A stretch of 64,000 nt of DNA. Origin: Centruroides vittatus. Its lineage: Eukaryota. Below are positions 30,001 through 61,404 of the stretch, piece by piece; positions within the stretch are counted from its first letter, which is position 1; the number at the start of each line of letters is the position of its first letter. The notes beneath the pieces were generated by a model. The model was given only the letters and a program-made list of their open reading frames with translations. It did not search any database and was not told where the DNA came from. A program made the translations under genes and the position numbers. Location of the stretch: contig NW_027122668.1 of the NCBI RefSeq assembly GCF_030686945.1, positions 188,099-252,098 of the forward strand. The letters are read 5' to 3'.

Positions 30001-33000
30001 GAGATAGACGATCTACGTTTCCCCATTGTTCTATTGTTTAAAAGTTCGCGTCGTTTTCTTTAAGAAAAACTATTTCTAACTTCTATTTTTTTTCCTCTAA
30101 AAAAATAATTTTTTTCTAAAAATAAATGATTTTAACGCGAATTTCAGTGAGGTTCGGACCTATCCAGAGCCTCACAGAGCTTCCCGCCAATTTAAAATGT
30201 CATAACGGAATAACGACATTTTAGCTGGCAGCTCTGAAAGCTGACAGTCCTTTCTCCCTTTGTTTGCTAAGTGACGTAACAGAGATACTTGTCTGAGAAT
30301 CCAGCCTTCTCTGGCGCGCGTTCGGTTTCGCGTTACAACAAAGTTTTTTTTTTCGATACATTATTGAATGGTATAGAATATCGTTTACAATTCATCGAAA
30401 TGTTTGTGTAACATCACATGTCTGTTTATAAGATTGGTTACAAATAATCAAATAACAATCACGGTCATCGAATAATATTTTAACAACATAAATGATCGAC
30501 AAACTATTTTCTAAAACATGTGAGTTTTTTTTTTTTTTTTCGTTTTCAGACTGAGCAATTCACACAATCTCAAAATTTTCAGAAAATGGTCTGAAACGGA
30601 GGGGGGGAGGAATGGAATGTATTCGTGTTACCTTCCTAATTTTTCGGAACATCTGATTCGGAAATCTGATAACAGGTTCAACGTTTAGTTTGATTGGCCT
30701 GTTTCAATCAGAATTGGAACTTGGGAACTTCATAGCCATTTCCGGTGCACGTGTAGTGCGGAGTTCTCTGGATCTAAGTTGAAGACACGTGCTTTTCGAA
30801 GTTATGCATCTAGTTCCGTTCCAAGTTTTCTGAAAAACTTCGTCTTTACCATGGGGGTCGAATCTTTTCCATTTTTTTTTTTTTTTTGTACTGGACCGAA
30901 AGAGGATCATGAAGCATTGACGGTGTGCAGTTGTGATCTTGCCAATGTCTTTACGGCCATAACTTCCGGATGTCAGTCTCTTGAACCAGTGACAGTTTTC
31001 TATCATCGGTTTTCCGACGCAGATTACCGCTAATCAAGGTCACGCAGTTCAGAGTGTTGTTCCGTAACTTCCGTTTGATCTGGTCAGAGTCTATTCGCAG
31101 TCTCAACTGTGACAGGTATGATCAATCATCATGTACACAAAAAAGGAAAAAATTTTCTGACATTTTGACTATATAAATTACTCAATCTATAACAGAAGTT
31201 TTCATCAATGTTTTGGTCGCGACAAAATTGTTTTCCGATGAGCGTGAATCAAATAGAAGATTATCGTTAAGTTTTCTCGAGAGTGATCAAATCCTCATTC
31301 TCTCTAGGACGGCCAAAGTGACAATTTTCTGTCATCTATCCTAAGTATGAGAAAATTTTGGAAAGGCGTTGACCAAGGAGATAAGTCGCTTCCCCGACAT
31401 GACTCTCTTCCCTTGACCAGTGTAGGCTCAATCGTGAGCGCTTCGTAAGGGATGGACAGAACAGTTTACACGAAACAAAAACAATACTATGGCTCCCTTT
31501 CGAAATGCACCACGCTCACATTGACTTGAATTCCGATTCGCGACAATTTTAACATTTAAGCACGTTTTTTGCATACATTTTTTTTCAGCGACAATTTTTA
31601 TTTTCAGAAAACGTGAATTCAATTAAAATTAACATTCGCTTTTGTTTTTATGATGATCTCTCCTCTCCAGAATGAAAGTTCATCATTCACAGTTCGCAAA
31701 ACCGGACCGATAGAAAATAGAGAGTAGGATACCGTAATCGCTTATAATCTTGACCTTAGGTTAAAGTTGCTATATTTTTTTTGCAATTGACAATCTGCTT
31801 GCTTTGCGTCTACCTTGGGACTGAGAAAAGCTAAGCATCTAGTTGCGGTCGCATTGGCCTGTTTCCGGGCTAATACTGTCAGAAAATCCTCTACATAAAG
31901 TGCCTGTTCTAAATTTCAATCAACTTCGGATTCGATTTGCCTATTCTGCGATTGATGAAAGAGTATCTACTGAAATAATTAGCCTATATCGCAATGAATA
32001 CGATGGATTTATAATCGGAACCTGCAACGCATTGGCCTCGATCTCCACTCGACTAGAGATGGCAGAGGGACGTTCTTTTCTCCGTACCAATCGGGCGACA
32101 GTGGTTGCATGTTATGAGGTTGTGAAAAGCATTGCAGCGAATTCGGATAGGGGTGTGCGTTTCCTACTTCGCTATTCCCTCGTTCCATGGGTTGTCCTGT
32201 TTGTTTATTCTGAATATTATCTTTGCGCACCAGTTATCTGTACTGACAATGTTCGATTATCTAACAATTTTTCCTAAAGGGATCCTGTTCAGAGGGATCC
32301 TACCTTTCTCTACTGCTTGTCTCCTCTCCCTCCTTCTTCCCTCCCCCTTTTCCTTACCCTCTTTTTTGCCAGCTAAACACTTCGTGTACGGCCAATGTCT
32401 TTCTTGTATGTATATTTGGTGGAGTCTTTGATTGTACTACACATTTGGATTTATCTGCATTTTGGTGGCTCTTAGAATTTTTTAGGAGTATGTTCATTTG
32501 CTTTACATGCATACACAAGCACCTATCTGTGTACCATCTTTCTACAATATCCATGCTTCAGTATGTTTTTTTGATGTGTTTTAATTCATCCAATGTATCA
32601 AGGATGTTTGAGCAGTGTTTGAACACTCATCTTTAGTTAGAGCCCTGAATGCCACCTCGTTGTAATTTTAAGGATTGCTGAGGAATCCAAAATAAATAAT
32701 GGTCAGTGTTCTGGTTTATAATTTATCCTAGTTTCGATGTGACCACCTTCGAATTGTACGTTCAGGTCTAAAAAGTGCAGAGGTATTGCTGAACTGTTTA
32801 AGAGTGGGCCCTTATGTATTGTTGTTGATATGTTCTAAAAAGATGTTAATGTCTGGTTTTGATTTCCAAATGATGAGGATGTCTTCAATATACCTTGCAT
32901 AAAATATGATATTTGGGAGAAAAAAACAGGTAATAACTTTTTGTAGCATATAAGCAACCAGTTCACATATCTGCTGAAAGGGGGCTTACCATTGGTATCC

Positions 33001-35749
33001 CCTGCACTGCAGGTAAAAGATATTATTGAATTTGAAACATGAAGAATAGCATGTATACTAGCTCTAATACCTGACTGTAGAGGTGTGGACCATTCACAGT
33101 TTCAAACAACCAATCCTGTAAGGTACAAAAGCAAGGTTGTGAAGAAATGAAGATATAAAGAAACAAAGTCCAATACAGTCGTATGTTCATTGTTAAATAA
33201 CATAATGTAATGTAATCTCTTCACTAGCTTCCATGAGTCTTTTTAATAGAAAATTCTGTCTCTCTCTCTCCAATAAATGGTTCAGTGGTCTCTCTTTGTC
33301 TATTATAAATCTTGGTAGGGTGCCTAGTACGTTCATTTTCACAAAAACAAAAAGCCTGAATGTGTCTGGAGATTTAACCCACTGCTCTAAATGTAATGTT
33401 TTAGCTATCAAAATACATGCAAATGGAGTATTTAATTAAAAACAATTTTGTAATAGAACATACAAATACATTGATCTAATGACATTGTCACTCCTTACAC
33501 AGCAGCTATAATTCTACAGCTTCTCCAGTTCCTCCAAATTACTCATGTTATGCAATTACGAGTGATTCCTACTTTTAAATTGCAGAAGACAAAATTTCTT
33601 TTCTATGGCAATTTGCCATTTTCATTTACAAAACTTAAAGATAGTAGAAAACAAGATATTTGAAGGCAGATGAGAGATTAAACTCTGATGGTTACTCTAT
33701 CAATTGGTGTAAATTGCATACCTCTCAGATGATAATTAATATAATTACAATAAAATATAAAAAAACATTTGCACAATTGGAAGAAATGATAAATGTCTTC
33801 TTCTTTTGTCTTTTTCAATATCTCAAGAATGTTTATGGCAGAGTCAACCTTTTATTTGAGGTTACTCATCTGTCTCAATATTCAAAAATGTTAAAAATAT
33901 CATGACAACGGCACAACCATAAATGTATAGTATAAAATGTCAACTCCACTGTAAAATCTGTTGTTCCCGAGATGTTGAAAAGGACAAAATTTCAAGATAT
34001 TTGTCATTTCTTCCAATTTTGTGAATATATTTTTATATTTTATTATTCTCCTGGCCATTTACTTATTAGATAATTATAATAATTTGAAATGGTAACATTA
34101 CTAAATTATTTTTACAGATAAAATTATCTATCTTTTGCAACATACACATTTGTTCACAAACAAATGTGTATCAGTGCAGACATATCCATTCATAACACTC
34201 ACAATATGCAAAATACTTACCGTGAAAAATGTGTAACTAACTTATATAAAATGAGCAAAAATTATTGTAAAACCATCACAGCAATTTCTAATCTTATTTT
34301 TAATTTAAAATATATGCTACAGATTTTACCCCTGTGCATCATACCGTTCCTGACAACTACAGAGTCATGCCTGTCATCTATCTAACTCCGTTGTGGAGAA
34401 AATGTTTGAATTGATATCACGTAACGTCTTATTCATACTGGAAGTTCGTATATAGTTAATTAATTAATCGTATATAGTACTCAATTAACTATATAAGAAC
34501 TTCGAGACCAGACAAGGAAAGCTCAGGGGGCAGGAGGCCCTAAGCTTCCTTTGTCTGGTCTGAGCTTTCATCTGTTTGTTCCAAGATTAAAGAAGGATGG
34601 ACAAACAGATGCCAGTGCGAATTATAAGTCTGCAATTTGAAAATTGCAATCCAACTCGGTTAGCGTGCACAGAAAATGCACCTATGGTGCCTAGATTCTG
34701 CTCTTCCACATGTTCTACATACACAAGACGAAAGTCTAGTAATATTAGTCACACTATAGAAAGCGGTAACATTAAATATATGCCACTTTAAAACTTTTTA
34801 AACTTGTATACCCTTAAAGATACTTAATAATTATAGTAATTTGTTGTAGCTGTCTTCATAAATATTTTAATTTATTAACATTAAAAGATTATTTATCTTT
34901 AAAATTAATTAATACTATAAAATTATTATTTACAGGTAACAACGCTTGAGGATCAAAGAATATTAGAAGAAATAATAGCTAAACTAACTTATAAAAAAAT
35001 ATATAGAAAGTTATTCTTGGATATGATCATTTCAGAATTCCACATCGTCATTCTTCGCTCTATACTTCTGCAAAAATTCAGATCCATTCGAAATTTTAAT
35101 AGTCAGATTAATATATACATGGATCTAAGCAATATATACATATAAATATATATCTATACTAATCTTATATGTCTTAAAAATTATTTTAAATTCCTTTTTT
35201 TTGCTTTGTGGTATTTTTCTGAAAGATAATTACATTATTCTGACTCTTCATTAACTAACAGTGACATGCCGTGACATTTGATGATAGGGAAGCTGTGTTT
35301 CTGTAAGAAGCCGACTTCCAGGGGCAATCAGTTAGTTGCGTGTCAGTGATGGTCTAGGGTAGTGTTCCGCAAACTTTTTGTGTTCAAGGTACACCTACCA
35401 AATCAAGAAATTTTAGAGGTACACCAAAGGAAAAACCAATGTTTATTTAATATTTATTTATTATAAAAATCAGTACAATGTTTAATGAGAAATGTGAGCC
35501 TGCTTAACTGAGCACAGGCGATCAAAATTTGGAACAATCGTTGATAAGGCTGCTCTCATCTCTTGGTCGATCGTCCTCAAGCGTTCTCTTTTTCTTGATT
35601 TAATCGTAGTGAGAGTTGAAAACCCCAATTCGCATAAGTAGGTCGTTTAATAATAAAATTTTATGTAATCTCTTTTTTACATAAATTACATAAAATTTTC
35701 TCACCTCTCAGCTCGAGAATAACGTGTGGCACAGAATATCAGAGATGTG

Positions 35750-37015
35750 GTTAATGAGATACAAGATCTAATTTTAATGGACGATGAAGTTGAACTGTAA
35801 TGGACTACGAAAGCTTATACCCCTCTATAAAAATTGAATCATGCAAGGTAGCGCTTTTAGATTTCATGCACAGCAAGAGCCCAGATTTGGCAAATTACAA
35901 TAATGATTTGATAGAACTAGCTAACCTTATCTGCTATGAATATTTTTTTGCCTTTAATGGCCGTCAATACAAACAAAAAAGGGGATTCCCAATGGGAAAT
36001 CCCATGTCAGGATTGTTGTGTGAACTTGTATTGAGAAAGTTAGAAAAAAGTGTTCTTTGTGGATTCATGAATGACATGGTGTATTTTAAAAGATACTTAG
36101 ACGATGTCTTTGTAATATGGAAGAATGACCAAAAAATCGAGGAATTTATTAATAAGATCAACAACAACGATGACGGCCTCATGCTAAAGATTGAACAAGT
36201 GTTCCTCACGGATACATTTTTTAGACATTGACATTGAATTCAAGGAAGGACATTTGGTCACTAAGGTGTACGTAAAACCGACGCATAGCCCTCTGTACAT
36301 TCCGTCCCACTCGAATGATCCTTACCAATGGCTGCCTTCCGTGCCCTCGTTCAAAGGGCTTTTCTCTATTGCAGTAATGTGGTGGATAGGCAAAAAGAAA
36401 TCTACAGGATATCACATATCGCTAGAACTCTAGGGTACAGAGCGGATATGATAACAGCACTAATCAAAAACTACAAGATAAACAAAACAAAGGCTCAAAG
36501 CGGGGATTTCGGCAAAGTCACAAAGTTCACGTATGATAGAAAGAAAAAAGCTATCATGAAGGAAATCTCAGCCCGCAAAAAGTTCAAATTAGTTTTCAAG
36601 AGAGCTCCCAACCTGTACAAATTATTAAGGAACGACAAAGACAACATTGATAAAGAAAGAAGAGCTGGAGTATACAAAAAAAATAAATTGAAAACCAGGA
36701 ACTAGGCATTAATAGAAATTACATTGGTATCACTAATAGAAACTTAGGAGTCAGATTAAGAGAACACAAGTACAATATCGGCAAAAGGTCTGACGCCACA
36801 ATACTATCGCAGATGGCGCAGGTTGAGGGCTCAGTAGTCAAATGGAACGAAGCAAGTATTATTAAACCTGTACATTCACCGACGTTAGCGATTAGCGCCG
36901 AAAAAATTGAAATATTTAAGAGCAGATTGCATGATACCTGCATTAATGCTAGGGATGCTGAAGGGTTGCCTTCAGCCTGGAAATACTTAATTAAAAGATT
37001 AGAGAGCTCTTAATT
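35750..37015 (+). mobile_element. Penelope-like element (PLE), copy 1: 5'-truncated RT plus GIY-YIG endonuclease, degraded by frameshifts
   Basis: RT motifs 'YKQKRGFPMGNPMSGLLCELVL' and 'YLDDVFVIW'. GIY-YIG: 'AGVYKK...YIGITNRNLGVRLREHKYNIGK' and C-terminal 'SAWKYLIKRLESS'. The pieces are spread over ORFs 35800-36231, 36191-36433, 36328-36705 and 36813-37013. About 60% amino-acid identity to copy 2 at 45072-46175. Confidence 0.8.
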
Positions 37016-37082
37016 TAATGCCTTGAATTTGTTATCTTTGCATATCTTGCATTTCTTCGAGTTGCATATAATATATTATTAT

Positions 37083-39784
37083 ATGAAGCATGCAATGCCA
37101 TAAGGTTGTAAATGCCATTTTTCTCAAAATACGTTTTATTGAAGAAATGAATTTTAAATGCAATGTTTTTTCCTACAAAAAAATATTGTGGTGATTGTGG
37201 CGCTCTAAGTGGCTATATTTCGAAGATGACGTTATGTGCAAGCCATAACGTTTTAAGCGTCAAAGTGCAAGCCACGTGACTTTTGGCACATAAAATGTTA
37301 CGGTTTACATTTACATCATTTTGTCATTCTAATTTGTAACGCAGTGAGTTTTTTATGAGTGAAATGAATTCCTTAAAGTATGAAATACCTAAAAGAAGAA
37401 AGAAATGTGCAGAAAAATGGAAGAAGAACATTCGAAAGAAACAAAAAAATAGTGGCTTAGAGTACATTTCTCCTATATCACAGAAAGTTAATCCGAGAAA
37501 GGATCCACCAACAGGGGTAAGTAAAAGACTTAATACTTCAAAAATATAGACGTAGATTTGAGATTTGCAAGATATGGATAGTCATTGTGTCTATGCATGG
37601 GTGAACAACTTGTATATGACTGTTTCCAACAAGTTTGTCAAACTTTTTGTTTACGTTACAGGTGACTTGCAAGTGTTCCTTCGCTTGCAAAAACGTAATG
37701 TTGGCTTACCATCAGGAACTCTTCCAACAATTTTATGAACTGGCTGACTACAATAAGCAACAGAGTTATCTTCAAAGACTTGTTCATCCCCAGATGATAA
37801 AAAGGAGATGATATGGGAAGTACCACCATCCTTCTGGAAGTAGAAGGCAACACTCTTTCAGTTATCATTTGCTTCTTCCCAGTGGAAGTGAAATAAGAGT
37901 TTGCCTTAAGACTTTGTGTAATACATTCGGGGTTACTGCAAGAAGAATTCAGTTGATTGGAGAAAAGATTTTGGAAGGAAAAATGGATGCTACTGATCAA
38001 AGAGGAGGCCAGCGAAAATGTACTGAAAAGCAGTTGTGGACGGAAAAAATAATTGAACACATTAAGAGTTTTCCAAGTGAAGAAAGTCATTATGCTCGAG
38101 CCAAAAGTACAGGTAAAATGTACTTATCACCTGATCTCAATGTTAGCAGAATGTACAGAGCCTTCCTTGAGAAATATTGTCAACAGTATGCTAGGAGCAA
38201 AGCCCCAGTTACTCGACAATGGTACAATGAAATTTTCCTAACCAAATTCAATCTATCTTTTCAAAGACCTCGCATGGACACTTGCTCAACTTGTGACCGC
38301 CTTGATGTACGAATAAAAGCTGGTGATGCATCAGCAAAAACAGAACTGGAATTACATCATTACAGAGCTGAAGTAACCACAAAAGACATGTCTGATGACA
38401 CAAAAAATGCTAAAACCTCAGATTCGTATGTTATATCTTTTGACTTGCAGCAGCAAATGTATATACCACAATTAACACACACTGAAATGTATTATGCTCA
38501 ACAATTGGCATGCTACAACCTTGGAATTCACGATTCAATTAAAGAGAAAGGATGCATGTGTTTGTGGAGTGAGAATTTTGGAGGAAGAGGGTCTTTGGAA
38601 ATATCATCCTGTATATACCATTATATTACTACTGAGGCTGCTAGTGGTGACCGAAAGAAGCTGACTTTGTGAACAGACAATTGTGTTGGTCAAAACAAAA
38701 ATCAATACGTGATAGCCATGTATCTGGTGTTATTGGCCAATAATGTATTTTCAGAAATAACACATAAATACCCTGTAAAGGGTCACACATTTCTCAGCTG
38801 TGATCGAGACTTTGCTCTAATTGAAAAACGGAGGAAAAAATGCAAAGCTTACACACTAAAGGATCTTGTGGACATCATTAAAAGTGCAGGGACCAAAAAC
38901 CCTTTTACCTGCATCGTATTTGAGAAATTTCATGACTTTAAATCGATTCCCCATGCATTTTTGAATACAAAAGACCTGGGAATCTCAACAGCATCCCAAA
39001 TTAGACTCTCATCAAATAACTTTGGTAAAGTTATGATTGCTAAAGGTGGAGGTAAAGCAGCAAGGTGGTGCACTGGGCTTAATGTGCTGAAAAATGGAGT
39101 TAGCATTGATGATTTCAAAAATCTTCCACTTCCTCTTGCTCACTCCCATTTTGGGATTCCTCAAAAGAAGAAACCTGACATTGGTAAAATGATACCATTT
39201 TTAAATCCAATAGCACAAACCTATTTCAAGGAGATGCTAGCAGAACCGGATAACTAAATGCCAGTTTATTAATAGTTAACCTGTCACTTTATTATTTGAT
39301 ATTTCAAAATGATATTTGGACTTCCATTAATCTTTCAAATTTGAAGTTTTTAAATACGTTTTAACTTTTATTACACTAAATTAAAACCTTATTGATAAAG
39401 ATTACAGCCCAGTTCAAGTCACTAATAGATTATTGTCAGTTTTTAATGTTAAAATTGATATTGAATTTGTAAATTGTGTTTAATAATTTAAATGTAAGTT
39501 TTTGGTATTCAAGACTGTTTTTCAGCTGTAGAAACATTAATTTTATGACTGCAATCGTTTTTGGCATTTACAACGTTATGGCTCTAACCCTGTTTTTAAA
39601 CTTTTTTTGTTTCCTTACTATCATTCTTCTTAGGTGTTTGAAATTAAACCCAATGTTTTATTCCAAACTGTAAATTGTTAAAATAGCATTTGATTAAAGT
39701 TTGTTCATTAGAAAAAGTGTTTTTTCTCTCTCCTGAAAAATTTGTTTTTTGGCATTTACAACCTTATGGCATTGCACGCTTCAT
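37083..39784 (+). mobile_element. Complete TIR-bounded DNA transposon (~2.7 kb) of unassigned superfamily; ~34-bp TIR ATGAAGC(A/G)TGCAATGCCATAAGGTTGTAAATGCCA
   Basis: 37083-37117 'atgaagcatgcaatgccataaggttgtaaatgcca' matches the rc of 39751-39784 'tggcatttacaaccttatggcattgcacgcttcat'. A subterminal partial copy lies at 39553-39590. The element encloses a single transposase-like gene. The flanks are AT-rich and the TSD is unresolved (TA or TAT possible). Confidence 0.6.
37355..39257 (+). pseudogene. Transposase-like gene of the 37083-39784 element: exon 1 37355-37516, GT-AG intron 37517-37661, exon 2 from 37662; inactivated by one frameshift (~37810-37870) and one in-frame TGA (38673-38675); ~600 aa when repaired
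   Basis: Canonical intron 'gtaagt...ttacag'. Basic N-terminus (KRRKKCAEKWKKNIRKKQK), a Cys cluster 'CKCSFACKN', then a conserved-looking core with acidic candidate catalytic motifs 'VISFDLQQQMYIP', 'TDNCVGQNKNQYV' and 'LSCDRDFALIEKRRKK' in RNase-H/DDE-like spacing. I cannot assign it to a named superfamily from memory. Confidence 0.5.
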
Positions 39785-42452
39785 TATAGTGTCTTAATAT
39801 TTATTTATTTAACCTATACATGTCACAATTTATATACATATTTTGATATTTATAATTATTTTTATTTTATTGTATTTTTATACATGTATATTTCATTTGT
39901 ATTTAAATTTTTTGTTCCATTTTGTTTGCATTCGAATATGTTTAACCTGATGATGGCCAATGGGTTTGGCTGAAAACGTTTGTTACGTTTTTTATTAAAT
40001 TTTCTCAGCAACTTAAGTTGTTTTAGTCTTTTCTGATCTAACTATCGGTGTTCGGTCTTTTATCAATTCGGCTAATGAAGGACATTTAAGAAAGTATCGT
40101 TTGGAAATGAAAAAATCCATGGCAAGTGTTATATGCTACCTGTCACAGTAATTAAGTGAATGTAATATACATTTTTTTTGTAAGAATTATGTTTAGTTTA
40201 TGATTTTGTTAAATTTTTTGCCAATAGATGGTGCTACATGTAAATTAGCAAGTGGAATGTAGATAGAAATTAATTGATTTACAGAAATTCAATAGATATT
40301 TTGGGCTGGGATGTACGACATTATCTAAGATAGAAGTATGCAAATGTAACTGCCAAGTTTCGTTGCAATTGGTCGAACGGCGTAGGAGTGTATAGCGGAC
40401 AAACAAACAACAAACATCCTAATGCCTTTGGTTATTGTTACCAAGAACAAGAGTTTTCAAGTGGTACAAGATGTTTAAATGTAGTTTGTCATTGAAAGAC
40501 AGAGAACGCGTCGATGAACCACGTTCTGGTAGGTCATCTGTGAGGTGTGAAGCGCGATAGGAATACACAGACACGTGAATTCAATTAAAACGAATTTAAT
40601 TTCGCGATAAACAATATATACAGATGAGTTCTTTTGGATTCCCTCGGTCCAATTTCTCTTACTGTCCGATAGTAACAAAAACCCTGTAAAGTACTATTTT
40701 AGTTTACAACGATTATCGACTCTACCGTGTCGGAAACAACCGTTAACCTACCGGGTACTTTACTCGGATTCGCGTTAGCGTGCCAGGCCTGGACTTTAAG
40801 CGTGCACCGAATTAAATAAAGACAATATTTGTCAATAGAAAAAAACCAAAGATTTAATTAGTCGTTTAGCAATAACTATGTACAAGATTTAGTAAAAATC
40901 AAACAATAATTTATTCTAAGAAATTCAACAAAGTCAACCCGACAATTCTCAATTCAAATCTATATCTAACTTAACTATTCCCCTTGGGAATCCGACAAAA
41001 CCAAAAGCTTAACTTATAACAATAATTCTTATAAACTAGAGATCCTAATCGTCACCTCAATATACTCGGAACCTATTTCCTCAAACTCTCAAGACTTTCT
41101 CAGACTGTCGATCCAAATTCGAATCACTTCAAATCACCTTGGAACTATTCGAGATCCTATCGGACACCTCTCTATTACTGCTGCAAAGCTCACCAAGCTC
41201 GTTGCTATCAGAATTCACCTCTCCGTCTTCACTTGAGACTCGGGATTTATAGTGTGAGGTGACGTCACAATTCTGAATGCGGTCACTCCCCTCATTTACA
41301 TACTTAAATGCTAACAATAACGTTTTTCATCGTCTGGCAGCCCTTTTTCCGACAGTTTACTCACTAACCTTTTACATTATTTGTTTTTACAATTCTTTCC
41401 GGGACGTTTTTATTACTTAAGGTTTAGCGAGTTTTATTTCGTGCTTGTAGGTTCTCCCCCCCCTCTTCTCGGTGCGGACCTATTCTTTGCCGCTCGGGGA
41501 GCGAAACTGTGCGTGAGTCTTATGGCGCTTTTCTTTCGTCGGTGAGTTGGGTTTTATTTCTTCTCTTTTTAAATACTGAAGGTGAATGGTGAGGAAACCT
41601 TCGTCCTAACAAAACATAAGCCCCAAACAAAAATAGAATAATAAGCAAAATAAAAGTAAAATAAAAATAACGCTCGGACTTGGTTCCTTACAACCCAAGT
41701 AGCTTACCTTCTTGGAAACTACTTGCCCGACAATACTAATGAAATCCGCGCGATCCTTAACTAACTTAAACCTAAGGATAGAAAAGTATAGAGATGGGAA
41801 GTGAGAAGAATTGATAGGATAGTGGGGTACCCTTGTTCTCGCTGAACTCCGATGCCGGCTGGTGCTTTATTCTGCGTGTCTCTGGGTTCGTCAATGTTTT
41901 AAATCTCTTCTACTATAATTTCTTTTCGGTGTCTCTGATTCTACAGTCCGGATCCTCACCTCACGGCTTTCTATTCGGCCCTCATGGAATTCCGTCTCAC
42001 GAGCTCGCTGTTTCGTCCGTGCTTCCTCGTGTCCGGCTGGAGAAAAAGTGACCCTTCGTGACCCAGATTTGACTCGTCCACAACTCGAAGTCTTTGTCTC
42101 ACACGGCCCCCTGGTGGGTGGGGAGTGGAAAGCCCCTGTTCCCAGAAGCCAGAACAATGAACAAAGGAAGTTAGAAAGAAGGGTTAAGAAAGAGAGAAAA
42201 TTATTAAAACTAATTAAATCTATAATACATATGTACAAAATATATGGCGTACAGCCACACATCCACTTCAACTGATGAGCAACACGTCGCTCGATTCAGA
42301 GATATGATGCTCGACGATGATCGTCGTTAACAATTAAAAATATTAAACACGTTTCGGTCTCATTTGGATTTTGTCGAGCAATTGTAAAAAATCATTCGGG
42401 CATGCAACTCGTCGCTTCTCGAGTCGTCCCGAAAACATTGAATTTTTTCCAA

Positions 42453-43103
42453 AATTAACTATATAAGAACTTCCGATGCAAACCGGAAGTTACGGTTTTT
42501 AATTCGAAACTCCACCTGCCGAAAGCAGTTAATAGATGACCTATTAACACGACTCTATTGTTAAAGAGAAAGTATGATGTACAGAGGCAAGCCACTACTA
42601 ATTTGAGGTGGAAAGCACATGTTTTAAATTAAATGATTTAAAACTATGATTAAAATTTGCATCCCCGGCATTGTGACGGCTTCACAATAAACAATTGCTC
42701 GTAGCTGTAGTTTGTGTGTGAAAACTTTGGTTTCAACTCGTGAAAATATTTACAATGACAAACTACATTTTGTCGTGTTATGAACCACAATATTGAAATT
42801 AAAATCCTTTTAAGAGGTAATAAAAAGTTAATAATTGTGGGAAATGGAAGAAGCGTTGCATTTTTCCATCAAAAATAAACAGAGAAGTGCAAGAGACTGA
42901 TATGCAGAAACTACGCCATTAAGATGTGCACTATATCCATCATTGTGGATAACACAGTATATTAAGGCGAACTAACATTTTGTTCGTTATGTTGGAGACA
43001 CTGAAGCCGTAAGCCCGAATGGGGATTAGAAAATTACCAATCAAAAATGCATTCTTAAATAGGCGAAATAAAGAGAACTGTTTTAATCTCGGTCTCTGCT
43101 AGT
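42453..43103 (+). repeat. Unclassified non-autonomous repeat 'X' (~650 bp), copy 1; starts AATTAACTATATAAGAACTTCCGATGC
   Basis: The same ~650-bp sequence recurs at 59297-59651 plus 61114-61404, where it is split by an insertion, at ~93% identity. No TIRs. The internal palindrome 'cttccgatgcaaaccggaagtt' is read directly. Confidence 0.55.
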
Positions 43104-44291
43104 TGTGTATAATTAAGAAAGACGTGATAAATATTACTAGTCTGGCAATTGGGAGAAGAAACCTTCACTTATAACTTTTTATACGTTCTCCAGCCTGACG
43201 AAACAGAGTCTGTCTCCTCGAAGGCTTTGTACATTTCTAACCTTTCAAGTTGTTTCGGCCGAGGCACTATTTTCTCTCGATGGCGTCCTTTTGCTTTCTA
43301 AGGAGTGAAAAAATTGTAGGGTTCTTCTAAAACTCTACAATTTCCTCAGTCCTTAGAATTCTGTGCTTACTACATCAGGATCTATCTCTTTATAGATGGA
43401 ACAGAGGGCCTTGTGGTATGTGACTACCACACCGTGTGATAGAACTTCCTGGGCTGAAACATTTGAAAAGGATAGATATCTGCAAACCGTTCGAAATAAG
43501 GACAGCATGAACATACATAGTCCATTTATATGTTACTGTAGGCCTATTATGACACAATTTAGCAAAATCGCTGTAGAAAAAATTGCCGTTATAAACAATG
43601 TTGATATAAAATTAGATGACATCATCGTTTTGTTACAAAATATACTTTAAATTATCATTACGTTACTAAACGCCGTTTAGTAAAATCGTTATAAAAAGTT
43701 TTAATTGGCATAAATTTGAGCTTTTGTAACATTTTGAATAAAATGCATTTTATATGCATAAAATGAAGCCGTAAAACTAAATTAGCTCCATGGGAAACCC
43801 CCGTGAACTTTGACCTATAGACCCGGAAGTGTCGCTGATAACGAGAAAGGCTTAAGTTTAAAATTTGAGCTTTCTTGACCCAGTGGTTTCTCTCTACGAT
43901 TGTCTGCAGTGCCGGATGAAGAAAATACCGCTTTTTTGCAGATTTTTGCACTTTTCGATTGCTTATATTTCGGCAACCGCTTTATACAAAATCTTGAAAT
44001 TTTGCACACTACCTAAGAGAACAATTTTCCTTCGAACGACGAAATTACAATAAGTGTTTGAGGGACGGAGAAATCGGCCACCGAAAATCGGCAACTCTTA
44101 TATAATTATTCCTGTATACGTAGTTTACTTGCCGGGGAGTCACTAGTCACTACCATCACTCCTGATATAAGACACTAGATTATTGGATCAAATTTCATCC
44201 GTTATTATTAAATACAGAACGTCCTCAATATACGTCATGCTTAAGTTCCTAAAACTTGTCGTGAATGAAATGGTGTACTGTACATCGAATA

Positions 44292-44340
44292 TCAATTTCT
44301 CACCGAAATAATATATTATGGTACATTGCTGACCAACTAA
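44292..44340 (+). repeat. Left copy of a 49-bp perfect direct repeat flanking the PLE composite (putative long TSD)
   Basis: 'tcaatttctcaccgaaataatatattatggtacattgctgaccaactaa' is identical to 46501-46549. Confidence 0.6.
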
Positions 44341-45050
44341 TAATACACAAACACCTAATTACTTGCTGAGCTTGCTGATTTCTTTATTCTCTAACGTTTT
44401 CAACCTAATTTTTATAGGTCATCTTCAGGAAAAAATTTATTACATTTCCAAATTCGAATATAAAGCTTTCGAATGCTCGCGACACTTAAAACTTTTCGAA
44501 TCTTTACAAATTTTAACGGTTTAAATAATAACGGATTAAACATTAAACCAACTACAAACACATTAAAATCATTACTAATCAACAAACAAAATAAATAAAT
44601 AAATAAATAAATAAATATTGTATCAAAAGTAGATTAAACTAGTTAATGCTGCCATGTCCTTTCTACGGGTTTTTTAATCCCATTTCTTTTTCTATTATGT
44701 ATTTCCATGCCGTTGGAAGATTATTTGCGTCTTTTGCATTTAAACATTTGTTTTCCACCTTACTCTTATATATTTCTACTTTTTCCATCCCTAACGCAAT
44801 CGTAGGTGAATGGACTGCCTTTACTATTCTCGCTTCATCCCATTTTACGTTCGCTCCTTCCTCTTGTCCCATGATCGCCAAAATGGTGTTATTGTGCCCT
44901 TTTTTTACATCATATTTGTGTTCTTTTATACGTGTTGCCAAATTACGTCTAGTTACTCCAATATATTCTTTTGTTACCGCTAATTGCTCGTTCTCAAATG
45001 GAATCTTATAAACCCCCGCCTTATCCTGCATTCTCATTGCGTCCTTATCA
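44341..45050 (-). mobile_element. Inverted partial copy (GIY-YIG endonuclease region plus 3' UTR) of the adjacent Penelope-like element
   Basis: 44341-45050 is the reverse complement of 45787-46500. The ORF at 44663-45037 (-) is identical to the C-terminal 124 aa of the 45072-46175 ORF. Confidence 0.8.
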
Positions 45051-46500
45051 TGTTGAGGAATCTGTATATGCTTGGGATCTTTTATAAATCATTTTTGTGG
45101 ATTTGATGGGGTGACATACAAGCAAAAGAAAGGTGTCCCGATGGGAAGTCCCATGTCGGGACTCCTATGCGAGTTAGTAGTACGTCAACTAGAAAAAGAT
45201 ATCCTAAGATCATTTGAGGAGTACATTGTAATGTACAAAAGATATGTGGATGACGTATTGATAATTTGGAAAGATGAACGAAAGATTGGAGATTTTTTAA
45301 TTGCTATGAATGACAATCCGCATGGGTTACAGCTAAAAATGGAACAAAAAAGCCGTACGCAGCTCCATTTTCTGGACATAAATATAAAATTTAGAAGGGG
45401 AGATATACAAACTTCAGTATATTTAAAACCAACGCTTGCGCCCCTATATATACCGGCGTGGTCTAATGATCCGTTCAAATATAAGATGGCAGCGTTTAAA
45501 GCGCTTATTAAAAGGGCGTACGTATATTGCACAGATGTACGAGATCAAATTAAGGAGATTGACAGAATTAAAAAAGTGGCAAAACAGTTGGGTTATAAAG
45601 AGAACGTAATAGGAGGGTTAATTAAGAGTTACAAACAGCATAGACACAGAGGATTTAATAGAGAGGATCGGATCAGCAAGTTCACGTACGACAGAAAAAT
45701 GGAAGGAGTGATAGAAGAGTTATGTAGATATAAAGGCACAAAAATGATTTATAAAAGAGCACCAAGCATATACAGATTACTTAGAAATGATAAGGACGCA
45801 ATGAGAATGCAGGATAAGGCGGGGGTTTATAAGATTCCATTTGAGAACGAGCAATTAGCGGTAACAAAAGAATATATTGGAGTAACTAGACGTAATTTGG
45901 CAACACGTATAAAAGAACACAAATATGATGTAAAAAAAGGGCACAATAACACCATTTTGGCGATCATGGGACAAGAGGAAGGAGCGAACGTAAAATGGGA
46001 TGAAGCGAGAATAGTAAAGGCAGTCCATTCACCTACGATTGCGTTAGGGATGGAAAAAGTAGAAATATATAAGAGTAAGGTGGAAAACAAATGTTTAAAT
46101 GCAAAAGACGCAAATAATCTTCCAACGGCATGGAAATACATAATAGAAAAAGAAATGGGATTAAAAAACCCGTAGAAAGGACATGGCAGCATTAACTAGT
46201 TTAATCTACTTTTGATACAATATTTATTTATTTATTTATTTATTTATTTTGTTTGTTGATTAGTAATGATTTTAATGTGTTTGTAGTTGGTTTAATGTTT
46301 AATCCGTTATTATTTAAACCGTTAAAATTTGTAAAGATTCGAAAAGTTTTAAGTGTCGCGAGCATTCGAAAGCTTTATATTCGAATTTGGAAATGTAATA
46401 AATTTTTTCCTGAAGATGACCTATAAAAATTAGGTTGAAAACGTTAGAGAATAAAGAAATCAGCAAGCTCAGCAAGTAATTAGGTGTTTGTGTATTATTA
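45051..46500 (+). mobile_element. Penelope-like element, copy 2 (5'-truncated, 3' end intact) with a 3' UTR containing (AAATA)n-like repeats
   Basis: It contains the intact ORF at 45072-46175. The 3' region at 46200-46500 is mirrored upstream. It is flanked on the right by the 49-bp direct repeat. Confidence 0.85.
45072..46175 (+). CDS. Intact 367-aa PLE ORF: C-terminal part of the reverse transcriptase (motifs B to C, 'YVDDVLIIW') fused to the GIY-YIG endonuclease ('GVYKIPFENEQLAVTKEYIGVTRRNLATRIKEHK')
   Basis: Uninterrupted frame. 'KKGVPMGSPMSGLLCELV' and 'YVDD' are RT motifs. The GIY-YIG motifs match the Penelope endonuclease. It lacks RT motifs 1-3, so it is 5'-truncated and probably non-functional on its own. 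Confidence 0.7.
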   Translation: MGSFINHFCGFDGVTYKQKKGVPMGSPMSGLLCELVVRQLEKDILRSFEEYIVMYKRYVDDVLIIWKDERKIGDFLIAMNDNPHGLQLKMEQKSRTQLHFLDINIKFRRGDIQTSVYLKPTLAPLYIPAWSNDPFKYKMAAFKALIKRAYVYCTDVRDQIKEIDRIKKVAKQLGYKENVIGGLIKSYKQHRHRGFNREDRISKFTYDRKMEGVIEELCRYKGTKMIYKRAPSIYRLLRNDKDAMRMQDKAGVYKIPFENEQLAVTKEYIGVTRRNLATRIKEHKYDVKKGHNNTILAIMGQEEGANVKWDEARIVKAVHSPTIALGMEKVEIYKSKVENKCLNAKDANNLPTAWKYIIEKEMGLKNP

Positions 46501-46549
46501 TCAATTTCTCACCGAAATAATATATTATGGTACATTGCTGACCAACTAA
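46501..46549 (+). repeat. Right copy of the 49-bp perfect direct repeat flanking the PLE composite
   Basis: Identical to 44292-44340. Confidence 0.6.
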
Positions 46550-48129
46550 AAACAGTTTATGTGCAAGTGTCTAGTGTACAATAGGAAACTGTTTATATGG
46601 AAGTGTCGCTACTCGTTATACCAACCATACCTTTCTACATTCAACGGTTGACTCAACGGTGAGAGAACATTTCTAAATGGACCGTTGAGTTCTCCGTTGA
46701 GACTAGTGACGTCAACGCTGTTTCACCGTTGAGCTCAACGACCTCAAAGACTGTTGAGTATTCAACAAACTAATGTGGCCGTCGGCCATATTAATGTATA
46801 TTTTTGTAGTTTATAAATTTATGTTAGATTTAAGATTTCTCTTGTTTCTCTCCCTTTTCTGTTGACAATAAAGATCTCCTTCTTAATCACTTTACGATCT
46901 AATTGTTTTACCACCGGATGGGGAGTGATGCCTCCAGTAACGTTGTGAAAAAAAAAACAAAGTAATAAAAAATTGAGGGAAAGAGGAGGAAAAGAAGAAA
47001 GGAAGAGGAGAAGCGAGCTCGGCTCTCGACGAGAAAAGGTCGAGGAGCACGGGTTGTGAGTTGGAACGAGATAGGTAAAAGATCGAAGCTCGACGAGCGA
47101 GGTCGACACGAGGAAGACCTAGTGTTATAGTAGATAAAGGACTTCCTGACGGACTGACAATCGTACTGGACAGATTTGAGTGGATTATCGTCCAATGAAC
47201 GAGAGGGATCTACCGAAACAGAGGATACGAGGCATCAGTAACCCCGCTCAGCATCACGAAGCCAATAGCAAAATTCCCGGGTATTTCCACCTTCCCCTTT
47301 CTCTATACTTATATTCTCTCTCTCTTCAATTCTCATAGTCTGTAAGTGGATTTAAGATAGTTAAGGACCCTTAGTAATATTGATAGTTTTATATTACATA
47401 ATTTGGACATTGTCATACCACCGCTCACACGTTGGGATCTGTGTAAAAAAAGAACCTTGTAGCTTAGCGAATAAAGATATTGTTTTTTTTTTTTTTGTAA
47501 AATTAACAACGTGTATTTGTCAATCATTGCATACCATTCGCTGTCGGCTATAACACTAACATGGCGGCTTCCACGAAAAAGTAAATTTCGCTTATAGAAA
47601 CTATCCATTCGCTGCTGTGGATACTGTAATAGCAGAGAGATTAATGAACGATCTGTATATGATAAAACATGTGATTGCACGATTATGTTGGATAATTTAA
47701 TCAATATTGAAATATTAAGATTTGTTTTTATTTGTCCAAAATTGATTACGACCAATATTTAGCCCTCTAATTCTTCCTAATGATATAAATATTCAAGAAA
47801 AGTATACAAGAAAATGATACAGATATGGGTTCATTTGAATAAAAGGATATATTCGAATAATGGTTAAGCAAGCTACTTTAATTATTTAGCAAAACAGTGA
47901 CGATCGCCGACACAGGGCCGGATCATCGAATAGACAAATGAGGCAAATGTCTAGGGCCCGGATTTTTGAAGGGCCCGGTCAAACTGTCTACTGTATTTTG
48001 AAAAGATGTAAGGTTTGCCGACTTTAAAGGGGATACAATTAATCCCGCGTCACTGACATCAGTGTAAGATTTGGACTGGTGTAGACTGGGCTTAAATATC
48101 CCGCGTCAGGATGAGCTTAAGGGAACCCG

Positions 48130-50424: not shown

Positions 50425-52955
50425 ATGAATTATCATCACGCTTCGGGTTCTGAGAAAAGAAAGTACATGAAGAAGTTGGAGGAAGAAGCAAATAAACAGA
50501 AACGCTCTGCTAAAATATGTTATTCATACAAAAGTAGACAATATCAATGTGGAAGTTGAGCCTGAAGAAAAGGACGTTGGTGAATATTCTGGAAACAGTG
50601 AAAATCAAGAAGTACAAATAGAGAAGACAGAAAACAATGAAAATATAATTGAAGTAGTTGAAATGAAAAATATAGAAGACAAAAACATACCAGAGGTTGA
50701 GAAGAAAAACGAAAATGCAATTAATGAAGTAGAAATACAAAATGTAGAAGGTAGATCCAACATCGTTAATGATATTTTAATTTTTGACAATTTGGACATT
50801 TCATTATGGCCTTTAAATTTAACAACAGACACGCAACATTATTTGCTTAAAAATAAACCATCGTCAAATATTTCTCTTGTACACACCGCTAAAAAAGTAG
50901 TGACAGAAGGTGGGAAAACTGTAACTCGGACATTAAAGAAAAATATTTTTACTCGTAACAAGGCAAACGGTGAAAAAATTGAGCGAGAATGGTTAGTGTA
51001 TAGCCCAAGAAGTAAAGCAATGAACTGCTATGTTTGCAAGATATTTGCGATCAGAAGAACCGCTTTTACAGAAGGCTACTCGGACTGGAAAAATGTAAAT
51101 GTAAGAGTAAAAAAACATGAACGTTCTACTGACCATAGGCATTCTATTGAAATTTTGATAGTAAGAAATTCAGTTGAGCGACGTGTAGATACTATAGTTG
51201 AAAAAAGTATTTAGAAAAAAAAATACTGGAGAAAAGTACTGCTGCGGGTAGTAGCAACAATAAAATTTTTAGCTAAAAATTCTCTTGCATTTCGTGGCTC
51301 TAATGAACTCTTTTCTGAATGTCAAAGCGGGAATTACATTGGAACTCTTGAATATTTGGTAGAATTTGATGAGTTTTTAGCATCGCATATAAAACAATAT
51401 GGATCAGCTGGAAAAGGCAACGTGAGTTATCTTTCTTCGACTATTTGTGATGAATTTATTGAAATATTGAACAAGAAAATGTTAGAAACATTTGTGTCAG
51501 AAGTTAAAGCTGCCAAATATTTTTCTATAATAATTGACTCTACTCCTGATATGACACATGTAGACCAATTAACTTTTATATTGCGCTATTTATCAGAAGA
51601 TGGAACCCCAATCGAGAGATTTTTTGGATTTATTCCCATTTATTCTCACTCGGGGGGAATCATCAGAAAATGAACTTTTACAGAATATTGCAAAATTAGG
51701 ACTTGATATTAGCAATTGTAAAGGACAAAGCTACGATAATGCAGCAAATATGTCCGGCAAATACAATGGGCTCCAAAACCGCATTAAAAGACATAGTGAA
51801 ACAGCCCATTACGTTCCTTGTGCTTCGCATTCATTAAATCTAGTAATAAATAGTGCTAGTGAATCATGCTTGCAGGCAATAACATATTTTAATTTACTGG
51901 AAATCATTTATACCTTTTTTTCGGCTTCTACGTATAGGTGGAACATTTTAGAAAAAACTTTTGCCGCAAATAATAAACATTTTACAGTAAAAAAGTTATG
52001 TACTACGAGATGGTCTTGTAGAGCTGATGCAGTTAAAGCAATTCGCGCTGGGTTCGACCAAATAGAAAGTGCTCTTCTTGAAATATCTTTAGACGAATCT
52101 CAGAAATGTTCTGTTAAAGAAGAATCACGAAAAATAGCAAACAAAATGAATACTTTAGAATTAATTTTGTTAACAGTTATTTGGGATAAAATTCTTTCCA
52201 GAATGAATGCGAGCATTTTGCAGTAAATATTTTTGACAATTTATATCATTACGTTAATAGTTTAAGAAGTTCATTTCTGGAAATAGAAGCAGAGGCATTA
52301 AGCACGTCAGAAATAAAAGTGTATTGTGATTTTAAAAAAAGGTCCCAAAAAAGAAAACGTTTCTTTGATGATGCTTATAATGATGAGGGAAATGTAAGTT
52401 TTTGTCAGAGCCAAGAAATGTTTAAGCGAAATTGTTTCTACGTAATTTGTGATAAAATATCTCTTCAATTAAAAGTTAGAAGCAAAAGTTACAAAGATAT
52501 TGATGAAAATTTTTAAAACTCTTCGTACAAACATAGCTGCCGACGAAGACGTATCAATTAATACCGCATTGCTAAAAAAATGGTACAGTGGCGACATTGA
52601 TACTGAAGAATTGGACGAGGAATTGTTGCAATTTAAATTAATTTGCAAAAGCCAAAATTTAACGTTGCCATCTGATATGCTGCAATTTATAAAGAGCACA
52701 AAAATAGTATCAACATTTCCAAATACAGAGATATTATTACGAATGTATTTAACTTTGCCTATATCAAATGCATCTGGTGAAAGGTCATTCTCAGTATTAA
52801 AACGTGTAAAAAATTATTTACTAAACTCACTGAATGCATCAAAATTAAATTCGTTAGCTGTTTTATACATCGAACAAAATGCTTTGGATAATATTAATTA
52901 TGATGAAATAATTGATAATTTTGCTGAATTAAAGACTAGAAAACAGAATTTTTAA
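50425..52955 (+). pseudogene. hAT transposase of the ZMYM1-like type (TTF-type zinc finger plus DUF4371-like core plus hATC), with about four frame disruptions; no identifiable TIRs of its own
   Basis: N-terminal 'SGSEKRKYMKKLEEEANKQKRS'; TTF zinc finger 'CYVCKIFAIRRTAFTEGYSDWKNVNVRVKKHERSTDH'; 'RVVATIKFLAKNSLAFRGSNE'; 'YFSIIIDSTPDMTHVDQLTFILRY'; 'CKGQSYDNAANMSGKYNGLQ' and 'HYVPCASHSLNLV' (hAT DDE motifs); hATC 'SNASGERSFSVLKRVKNYLLNSL'. The pieces lie in the ORFs at 50549-51214, 51356-51673, 51600-52226 and 52500-52955. Confidence 0.8.
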
Positions 52956-55902: not shown

Positions 55903-56968
55903 CATAACAGCTGATTTTGTCGAAACCGTGTTGTGTTTGATTAGTGTGTACAGGCACGATGAAGTGACGTTTATTTTTTCAACACTAGGCTAGTTGAATC
56001 TTTATTTAGTTAGAACGTGTTTTTCTACATCGACGTTTCGGGCTTCAGCCCCTCATCAGCTAACTAAACATATATAAAAAATATATTTTCTACATGGCAT
56101 AAATAAAAATCAAAAAACTAAAAACTCACATAAATTCTTTGTAGACCATACCTTGCTTTTGCATGGGTACTATACACACAGCAGAAATCGGACGACACTT
56201 AGGCTTTACATTTTCAATATCAATTTTTTCTCGCAACTTTAACTCCATAAAAACCAAACCGTTTTTTCATTTTATTACATAAATAAGATAACTTCTGTAG
56301 AAATTAAAAAATTAAAAACCAAAATTTACAAATTCCAAAGGTCGTTTTTACTACCTCATCGACCAATCCGACAATTTGCATATAGCACTGTGTGCCGTAA
56401 GTTGCACCTATTAACAAATTAATTAGCAACATTTGAACCCTTAAGGGTTTCTAAATGTTGGCTAATTAATTTGTTAATAGGTGCAACTTACGGCACACAG
56501 TGCTATATGCAAATTGTCGGATTGGTCGATGAGGTAGTAAAAACGACCTTTTGGAATTTGTAAATTTTGGTTTTTAATTTTTTAATTTCTACAGAAGTTA
56601 TCTTATTTATGTAATAAAATGAAAAAACGGTTTGGTTTTTATGGAGTTAAAGTTGCGAGAAAAAATTGATATTGAAAATGTAAAGCCTAAGTGTCGTCCG
56701 ATTTCTGCTGTGTGTATAGTACCCATGCAAAAGCAAGGTATGGTCTACAAAGAATTTATGTGAGTTTTTAGTTTTTTGATTTTTATTTATGCCATGTAGA
56801 AAATATATTTTTTATATATGTTTAGTTAGCTGATGAGGGGCTGAAGCCCGAAACGTCGATGTAGAAAAACACGTTCTAACTAAATAAAGATTCAACTAGC
56901 CTAGTGTTGAAAAAATAAACGTCACTTCATCGTGCCTGTACACACTTCACTAACAGCTGTTTGGGAAG
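55903..56968. repeat. Near-perfect long palindrome (inverted duplication): two ~530-bp arms with no spacer, centre at ~56442/56443 within 'gaaccctt|aagggtt'
   Basis: The arm 55938-56442 is the reverse complement of 56443-56950 with only a few indels (a 2-bp difference beside the centre and an ~25-bp deletion in the outer part of one arm). The outer ends are both 'aacagctg'. AT-rich and non-coding. Confidence 0.85.
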
Positions 56969-59296: not shown

Positions 59297-59651
59297 CAAT
59301 TAACTATATAAGAACTTCCGATGCAAACCGGAAGTTACGGTTTTTAATTCGAAACTCCACCTCCCGAAAGCAGTTAATAGATGACCTATTAACACGAATC
59401 CATTGTTAAAGAGAAAGTATGATGTACAGGGGCAAGCCACTACTAATTTGAGTTGGAAAGCACATGTTTTAAATTAAATGATTTAAAAGTATGATTAAAA
59501 TTTGCATCCCCGGCATTGTGACGGCGTCACAATAAACAATTGCTTGTAGTTGTCTGTGGAAACTTTGGTTTCAACTTGTGAAAATATTTACAATGACAAA
59601 CTACATTTTGTCGTGTTATGAACCACAATATTGAAGTTAAAATCCTTCTAA
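59297..59651 (+). repeat. Repeat X, copy 2, 5' part (interrupted by element Y)
   Basis: Collinear with 42453-42815 of copy 1. Confidence 0.55.
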
Positions 59652-61113: not shown

Positions 61114-61404
61114 TTAGAGGATTAATAACTTCAATATTGTGGGAAACTGGAAGAAGCGTTGCATTTTCCCATCAAAAATAAACAGAGAAGTGCAAGAGAC
61201 TGATATGTAGAAACTACACCATTAAGATGTGCACTATATCCATCATAGTGGATAACACAAGTATATTAAGGCGAACTAACATTTTGTTCGTTATGTTGGA
61301 GACACTGAAGCCGTAAGCCCGAATGGGGATTAGAAAATTACCAATCAAAAATGCATTCTTAAATAGGCGAAATAAAGAGAACTGTTTTAATCTCGGTCTC
61401 CGCT
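61114..61404 (+). repeat. Repeat X, copy 2, 3' part
   Basis: Collinear with 42816-43103 of copy 1. Confidence 0.55.

Follow-up and report, generated by a model that had tools for sequence, protein, structure and literature searches.

In a 64,000-nt stretch of the genome of the scorpion Centruroides vittatus (contig NW_027122668.1, positions 188,099 to 252,098; 'the window' below, with positions counted from its first letter) lies a 2.16-kb composite of a Penelope-like element (PLE), in which a 5'-truncated copy is preceded head to head by an inverted copy of its own 3' part and the pair is bracketed by a perfect direct repeat. We put the probability that a very recent, single PLE retrotransposition produced the whole composite at roughly three in four. 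The shape of such insertions is already known for PLEs, and this is an unusually clean and very young example from an uncharacterised family; modestly new are the 46-51-nt stagger, the use of one start site for both arms and an error-rich patch at the join. Of all retrotransposon mechanisms, PLE integration is understood least, and the origin of the tandem and inverted composites has been called undefined in the literature. A copy with zero divergence is a natural data point in this respect, with outer junctions, inner junction and duplication that can be read base by base.

A repeat search of positions 43000-48000 returned a direct-repeat pair at 44290-44343 and 46499-46552, in which identity covers the first 51 nt. 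This perfect 51-nt repeat (TATCAATTTCTCACCGAAATAATATATTATGGTACATTGCTGACCAACTAA; 70.6% A+T) thus lies at 44290-44340 and 46499-46549 and flanks the insert on its two sides. The final three nucleotides of the left repeat (TAA, shared with the inverted arm) and the initial two of the right repeat (TA, shared with the terminus of the direct copy) are also element-terminal bases (...GTGTATTATTA), and since they could equally belong to the element terminus, the true duplication is 46-51 nt long. A sequence-only reading of this stretch had described a perfect flanking repeat of 49 bp, which was correct as to perfection and position, but those 49 bp are a subset of the 51 nt (46-51 nt with the microhomology).

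The same search recovered inverted repeat arms at 44338-45051 and 45787-46500 that are 100% complementary over 714 nt. Comparison of the region with the window by BLAST carried the inverted homology on to 45099 and 45737 (764 nt at 99.2% identity) and found no further copy of the element within the 64 kb. The inverted partial copy of 710 bp and over 99% identity in the sequence-only reading is therefore real, although its full length is 764 nt, with an error-rich last 50 nt. This left arm (44338-45099, minus strand) is a 5'-truncated copy of the 3' part of the element, with the 3' tail running to 44662 and a nuclease-coding remnant at 44663-45037, where the ORF (open reading frame) list holds a mirrored ORF of 124 aa. 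The direct copy (45100-46500, plus strand; ~1.4 kb) comprises motifs 4-7 of the reverse transcriptase (RT), the thumb/linker region, a GIY-YIG nuclease domain (~45798-46172), a stop codon (46173-46175) and a 3' tail (46176-46498/46500). We found no poly(A) at the element 3' end, and the one-sided 'tail' of PLEs is absent on both arms.

Both copies terminate at the identical element nucleotide, and each terminus abuts one copy of the 51-nt repeat, the direct arm being fused to the right repeat and the inverted arm to the left. That a perfect 51-nt repeat should exactly abut both ends of a perfect 714-nt inverted repeat is beyond chance. The inner ends are truncated unequally (764 nt versus ~1400 nt from the 3' end) and are joined head to head at 45093-45104, where homology ends on either side; 637 nt of unique sequence lie between the inverted arms and the junction holds no palindrome. 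It falls in a T-rich stretch (TTTTGTGGATTT), with inverted-arm homology stopping at 45099 and homology to the RT of the family starting at ~45099-45105. Judging from the codons of the closest homologue (C. vittatus protein P0003) and of two related loci (L001 and L002, described below), the parent sequence and the other arm probably shared the microhomology TCNTTTTT at this point. The arms differ by four substitutions and two 1-nt deletions, all of them within 45052-45077 of the left arm, a patch of 26 nt that lies 22-47 nt from the inner junction. In the comparison with P0003 the family reading frame is preserved in the direct copy, so these six changes belong to the inverted copy; their clustering suggests low-fidelity synthesis or a template switch just before joining.

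That the insertion is recent, as had been proposed, is supported by the lack of any difference across the 714 + 51 paired positions (95% upper bound of 0.39% divergence). The fit of the parts bears on the number of events. A truncated insertion could have been followed by an independent one, either an adjacent second insertion or a replication-based inverted duplication, and such a history would be in keeping with reports that PLEs insert into or next to existing copies (PMC6765202, PMC11167929) and with the richness of the window in PLEs (at least four PLE-derived pieces). However, only one direct-repeat pair is present and it brackets the whole composite, with no second duplication pair for the left arm; identity of 714/714 positions in the arms and 51/51 in the repeats gives both parts an equal, essentially zero age; and a secondary duplication would have had to begin precisely at the element terminus and be placed, to the base, between the left repeat and the truncation point. 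Two events are accordingly a highly improbable account of the composite.

The least probable of the explanations considered is that the inverted segment is an assembly or read artefact (a fold-back chimeric read, or a collapsed or misjoined repeat) and that the genome carries a simple truncated copy. It would be in keeping with the 100% identity of the arms, and PLE tandem and inverted structures are said to cause assembly problems (PMC8557442). The stretch contains no Ns, however, and a fold-back would neither set the exact 3' terminus against a direct copy of the 51-nt flank nor create six clustered differences beside the junction, while the same architecture recurs in four loci of another species' independent assembly, elsewhere in the window and in the literature.

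If the composite arose in a single insertion, the 51-mers would be a target-site duplication (TSD) made at that time. Two other identities for the 51-mer, element sequence (a PLE 'tail') and old PLE DNA, were rejected: it resembles neither the tails nor any other stretch of the four related loci, and its direct orientation rules out an extension of the inverted arms. There is no paralogous empty site either, since neither the window nor the four fetched loci hold a second copy of the immediate flanks.

Related loci and published insertions

Four loci of Centruroides sculpturatus (L001-L004), chosen solely for encoding homologues, all carry an upstream inverted 3' fragment (1033 nt in L001, 62-68 nt in L002, 42 nt in L003 and 340 nt in L004), and L002 is also a partial tandem. 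Because the fragment is present in four of four loci, the head-to-head shape appears to be normal for the Centruroides PLE lineage, and it fits published PLE structures. Insertions of PLEs are 5'-truncated and often tandem (Craig et al., PMC8557442), and they typically come with a 5'-truncated copy in inverted orientation upstream, a TSD of variable length and a tail of 30-40 nt (PMC8557442, PMC3846280). Comparable structures with TSDs of 8-10 bp, proven by empty sites, are known in Adineta vaga (Arkhipova et al., PMC3846280), and copies in Drosophila virilis have large flanking inverted repeats of variable size (Schostak et al., PMC2377424). The 5' truncation, inverted copy and variable flanking repeat of the window insertion, the last as a putative TSD, are those of a PLE-type insertion, and the match to known Penelope products that the sequence-only reading had drawn is borne out both by these publications and by the C. 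sculpturatus loci.

L001 and L003 offer candidate TSDs of ~12 nt, which may overlap the tail; L002 and L004 yielded none. Three of the loci show a conserved extension of 26-31 nt beyond the usual 3' end (TTGTAAGTATAC.GCTGAGGAGGT), at one end only of each composite (7097-7127 in L001; ~3690-3722, inverted, in L002; 3884-3909, inverted, in L003). This extension, with the motif ..GTATAC.GCTGAGGAGG.., matches the PLE 'tail', which has been attributed to a second start site of reverse transcription. In L001 the inverted arm ends within the hammerhead core, 117 nt before the element end.

Reverse transcriptase, nuclease and hammerhead motif

The 367-aa open frame (45072-46175, plus strand) starts with TTG inside the inverted arm, from which its first ~9 codons are a fortuitous read-through; its first in-frame Met is residue 24. 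Its counterpart in a family protein, at least ~710 aa long, runs from residue ~347 to the end, and homology to P0003 begins at residue ~347-349, as expected of the 5'-truncated main copy already recognized in the sequence-only reading. RT motifs 1-3 and the entire N-terminal region are missing. The ORF had been called intact; it does exist and holds RT sequence and a predicted GIY-YIG fold, but because the N-terminal half of the RT is absent the copy cannot encode an active RT and is non-autonomous, dead on arrival. For annotation purposes it is a dead fragment to be masked, not a gene. If the locus is transcribed, its main consequence is possibly a hairpin RNA or small-RNA output.

Against Pfam, the whole ORF matched RVT_1 only (E 7e-8), with GIY-YIG not reported. 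Its homologues are exclusively 'uncharacterized proteins' of C. vittatus and C. sculpturatus with RVT_1, the best being P0003 (98% identity; by tblastn, 95% over residues 347-616). A profile built from the full-length scorpion proteins gathered 34,289 relatives and matched PLE proteins of ~800 aa that combine an RT with a CxxC-GIY-YIG nuclease (P0311, P0313, P0334 and P0374; E 1e-72 to 1e-82), the matches to these canonical proteins spanning nearly the full length. The ORF itself aligns end to end with the PLE-type proteins P0070 and P0071 (BLASTP E 2e-22 and 4e-23), both of which pass Pfam GIY-YIG. By these comparisons the window RT appears to be related to the RTs of PLEs.

The C-terminal 125 residues align with the nuclease of P0070 and P0071 in the pattern GVY..YIG.T.R..R.KEH..E..N, with GVY, YIG.T, R, KEH, E and N kept. 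When domains were searched in isolation, GIY-YIG was the top Pfam family in 10 of 12 family members, at sub-threshold scores. A model built with AlphaFold2 from the family alignment (mean predicted local confidence, pLDDT, 85.6) had the catalytic domain of I-TevI as its top three PDB matches, with a fold-match probability of 1.00 and template-modelling (TM) scores of 0.68-0.75. The model and the alignment together predict a C-terminal nuclease of GIY-YIG fold fused to the RT. The GIY-YIG assignment of the sequence-only reading is thus upheld by the I-TevI match and by the sub-threshold Pfam match of the isolated domain, but not by any Pfam call on the whole ORF, nor by the CCHH motif.

The 3' tail carries a minimal hammerhead ribozyme motif, CCUGAAGA-U-GACCUA...UAGGUU-GAAA-ACGUU-A, at 46409-46446 (plus strand) and, in mirror image, at 44392-44429 (minus strand) of the inverted arm. 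It consists of the core CUGAAGA, an unpaired U, a helix II of 6 bp, GAAA and the palindrome AACGUU in place of helix III; H17 is the A at 46446, and the motif lies 52 nt before the element end. Rfam reported no hammerhead in 43-48 kb at E<=1, in the tail or in the L003 copy with a canonical core at E<=10, or in the whole window at the gathering score. A subsequent pattern search recovered the motif, and seven aligned copies were used for a covariation test in which the pairs of helices I and II and the C3-G8 core pair were scored. In this alignment 90.9% of the paired cells are paired and five pairs have changed on both sides (one copy has U3-A8 in place of C3-G8), giving a covariation score of 0.476 against 0.18 for shuffled alignments, none of 500 of which reached it, and at most 0.255 for slid controls.

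A single unpaired base 5' of stem II, a short helix I and the palindrome AACGUU for helix III are common to all seven copies, and these are exactly the features of the dimer-forming minimal hammerheads of metazoan PLEs described by Cervera and de la Pena (PMC4209133), for which the change from C3-G8 to U3-A8 is described as well. In each of the four related loci the motif occupies the matching site after the stop codon, and a decayed PLE of the window carries it too (39947-39980). We therefore assign to the 3' tail of both arms a putative minimal hammerhead of PLE type. The Rfam 15 models also miss the minimal hammerheads at 39947-39980 and 56830-56857 and in the fetched loci, and were silent at E<=10 even for a 160-nt stretch with a canonical CUGAUGA core, so that annotation relying on them will miss the minimal hammerheads here.

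Formation of the composite and placement of the family

With one repeat copy joined to the terminus of each arm, the geometry calls for two 3' overhangs of 46-51 nt: the 51-mer must have offered a 3'-OH on the bottom strand at its left edge and another on the top strand at its right. The most likely route, to judge from this anatomy, is dual priming: nicks on both strands followed by two-ended reverse transcription. The GIY-YIG nuclease, probably in a dimeric ribonucleoprotein, would nick the bottom strand at ...TTGATA^TTCG... and, 46-51 nt away, the top strand at ...CCAACTAA^AAAC... (CTAA^AAAC), and the staggered nicks would leave two 3' overhangs. Each 3'-OH would then prime reverse transcription at the same start site on the RNA, where 2-3 nt of TA(A) microhomology to the RNA end ...UAUUAUUA would assist; both of the primers so placed end in TA(A), matching that end. 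Two cDNAs, of 764 and ~1400 nt, would grow toward each other and be joined by a template switch or by microhomology-mediated end joining in the T-rich stretch; this joining would account for the error-rich patch in which the shorter cDNA ends, and fill-in of both overhangs would yield the 51-nt duplication. On this account the window copy would fix the polarity and the stagger of the two nicks, with both arms derived from one start site.

A biochemical parallel is available. The purified Poseidon protein of Anolis (PAc) cleaves and extends both DNA strands, prefers AT-rich sites and starts reverse transcription from defined sites, and a dimer is predicted (Frangieh et al., PMC11167929). The geometry of the scorpion composite fits all of these properties, and the composite may be what a Poseidon-like both-strand reaction would leave after the cDNAs had been joined. 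The defined start sites of PAc would also explain the 'tail', the two tailless arms of the window copy indicating use of the proximal site. Unlike our insertion, PAc belongs to a different clade and host and is known from an in vitro reaction and not from resolved insertions (PMC11167929). If dual priming is true, the composite is an in vivo counterpart of the both-strand cleavage and extension seen so far only in vitro, and two-ended priming would explain why head-to-head inverted copies are frequent in PLEs.

A single insertion might also have acquired its inverted copy with no second target-primed start, through self-priming or template switching of the cDNA (a snap-back, or use of an antisense transcript). 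Self-priming has been inferred from palindromes at the inverted junctions of rotifer Penelope elements (Arkhipova et al. 2013, PMC3846280), a symmetric case with a palindromic centre is present in the window itself at 55934-56955, and template jumping would fit the error-rich patch near the junction as well. The composite at hand differs from a snap-back product in its asymmetric arms (764 versus ~1400 nt), which are separated by 637 nt of unique sequence, and in the lack of a palindrome at the junction. Moreover, the exact canonical terminus of the inverted arm at the end of the top-strand target would be a coincidence for a snap-back or for the 5' end of an antisense RNA, whereas it is expected if both arms start at the initiation site of reverse transcription, and a snap-back into the flank would have copied flanking DNA in inverted and not direct orientation. 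We therefore think self-priming unlikely, and prefer dual priming.

Staggered nicks and a second primer recall another retrotransposon, LINE-1. In LINE-1 twin priming, reportedly set out by Ostertag and Kazazian in 2001, the top-strand 3' overhang serves as a second primer, giving an inverted 5' and a direct 3' segment within one TSD; that primer is said to anneal at an internal site, and the two segments therefore come from neighbouring stretches of the element. The likeness lies in the geometry only, namely the staggered nicks, the second primer and a microhomology at the inner junction that is, in our case, a probable one. A LINE-1-type twin-priming inversion was rejected for the window copy: both cDNAs start at the same 3' site, so that 764 nt are present twice, the nuclease is of GIY-YIG and not APE type, there is no poly(A), and the stagger is longer.

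The scorpion family shares with the canonical PLEs that carry an endonuclease (EN+; Penelope of Drosophila virilis, Pen2a of Adineta vaga, Poseidon/Xena of fish and lizards) a single ORF with an RT followed by a C-terminal GIY-YIG domain, 5' truncation with an upstream inverted 5'-truncated copy and a variable flanking duplication, a hammerhead in the terminal repeat or tail with no poly(A), and, in its relatives L001-L003, the optional one-sided tail of 30-40 nt. It departs from them in the nuclease. The stretch from GIY to YIG (IPFENEQLAVTKEYIGVT) lacks the two Cys found there in canonical proteins, having no Cys at all, and Met or another residue takes the position of the second His of CCHH; the same is seen in the 14 scorpion proteins of the alignment that include the nuclease domain, and the GIY-YIG spacer is 5 residues longer than in canonical PLEs. 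The N-terminal motif is DKT or DKS and not DKG: family proteins read ADKT or ADKS at the position aligned with DKG, upstream of which the window copy is truncated. The window copy also differs in having neither a tail nor a direct pseudo-long terminal repeat (pLTR) or tandem partner, and in a duplication of 51 nt against the 8-10 nt of A. vaga. The nearest non-scorpion relatives (P0292, P0294, P0301 and P0306, from Logan contigs of 2.6-3.3 kb) likewise have a Cys-free GIY-YIG core and carry DKS or DKT.

A CCHH motif is known to be absent from the Hydra and Chlamys clades (PMC8557442), and the zinc-finger-less nuclease is a lineage-level variant of the kind already known from the former. The Hydra clade combines a C-terminal GIY-YIG domain without CCHH, replacement of DKG by DKT, RWK and hammerheads with a CxCX5C linker, (TA)n targets and aquatic invertebrate hosts (Craig et al. 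2021, PMC8557442). The scorpion proteins share the missing CCHH, DKT and RWK (their consensus reads ...YFRWK... and ...ADKSK/ADKTK...), as well as short elements and a hammerhead. Unlike Hydra proteins, they have neither the CxCX5C linker nor CxxC/CxH around the catalytic E and N; the scorpion linker (...KFTYDRKMEGVIEELCRYKGTKMIYKRAPSIYRLLRNDK...) holds a single Cys, and just one conserved Cys precedes LN. The target is AT-rich (70.6%) and not a (TA)n microsatellite, a difference that one insertion attests weakly, the hammerhead is minimal and not canonical, and the host is a terrestrial chelicerate. The family is thus partly Hydra-like and, by the published description of that clade, a possible member of it; it adds a terrestrial arachnid lineage to the PLEs without the CCHH finger.

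Put together, these observations are compatible with a fuller reading that we advance tentatively, at less than even odds: that the insertion is the fossil of a symmetric two-ended target-primed reverse transcription by a dimeric particle with nicks ~50 nt apart, and that the element belongs to an undescribed PLE lineage of terrestrial chelicerates with a C-terminal nuclease but with neither CCHH nor linker finger, Hydra-like in RWK and DKT yet distinct.

Several points speak against our interpretation, both of the element and of its insertion. The Pfam GIY-YIG match scores 20.2 bits against a gathering score of 22.6, a family profile of the nuclease domain found no match among PDB sequences at E<=10, and the CCHH motif of canonical PLE nucleases is missing. 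At 51 nt, the repeat is far longer than the ~12-nt candidates in L001 and L003 and much longer than the 8-10 nt of A. vaga PLEs (PMC3846280), and that the 51-mers are a duplication made at insertion is a step that we only infer. Dual priming draws on geometry and on in vitro work with a distant PLE, the order of its events being likewise inferred, the junction microhomology depends on guessed codons of the parent element, and the error-rich patch could reflect a switch to a diverged template.

Surroundings of the insertion

The window contains other PLE-derived pieces. A near-perfect palindrome of ~1 kb at 55934-56955 has arms (55934-56339 and 56550-56955) that are 99% complementary, with 90% on to the centre, and a central sequence (AACCCTTAAGGGTT) that is itself palindromic. 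Each arm holds a minimal hammerhead of more canonical appearance (CTGATGAGGGGCTGAAGCCCGAAACGTC; 56830-56857 on the plus strand and 56059-56032 on the minus strand). No ORF and no clear TSD were found for it, only a 9-mer (TAACAGCTG) near both edges. Its appearance is that of two pseudo-LTR fragments, derived from another PLE family and facing each other head to head, as in symmetric 'snap-back' structures. At 32438-33278 (minus strand) lies another PLE-derived RT fragment, with 26-48% amino-acid identity to the scorpion family by tblastn.

Two segments just upstream of the insertion (42453-43100) recur at 94-95% identity at 59298-59651 and 61108-61404, as a dispersed repeat. Other transposon-derived ORFs lie at 15247-16216, 25047-25676 and 50549-52955; by eye, one resembles a Helitron/Pif1 helicase and one GTF2IRD2/hAT, and the third is a hAT 'zinc finger MYM-type 1-like' gene split into three ORFs with 91-95% identity to C. 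vittatus proteins. The neighbouring hAT/ZMYM1-like ORFs matched only C. vittatus proteins, with no annotated C. sculpturatus counterpart. Within 10 kb of the insertion there was no convincing host exon, and the region resembles intergenic or intronic DNA rich in transposons.

A second PLE copy (35685-40032, plus strand; 83% nucleotide identity to L003) is decayed and belongs to another subfamily; it retains RT/nuclease ORF fragments at 35800-36231 and 36328-36705, with coding homology to ~37000. Because ~2.8 kb separate this coding part from the 3' tail and its minimal hammerhead, another transposon appears to be nested in the tail. Two adjacent ORFs of 267 and 182 aa (37869-39257, plus strand), apparently within the nested segment, encode a transposon protein of DUF7869 type. 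Their homologue search returned no Centruroides protein; the named homologues are from insects (Diabrotica, Graphocephala and Timema; 60-69% identity) and the others from Logan, JGI and ENA contigs, and the DUF7869 element could be either an unannotated scorpion family or a horizontally acquired one.

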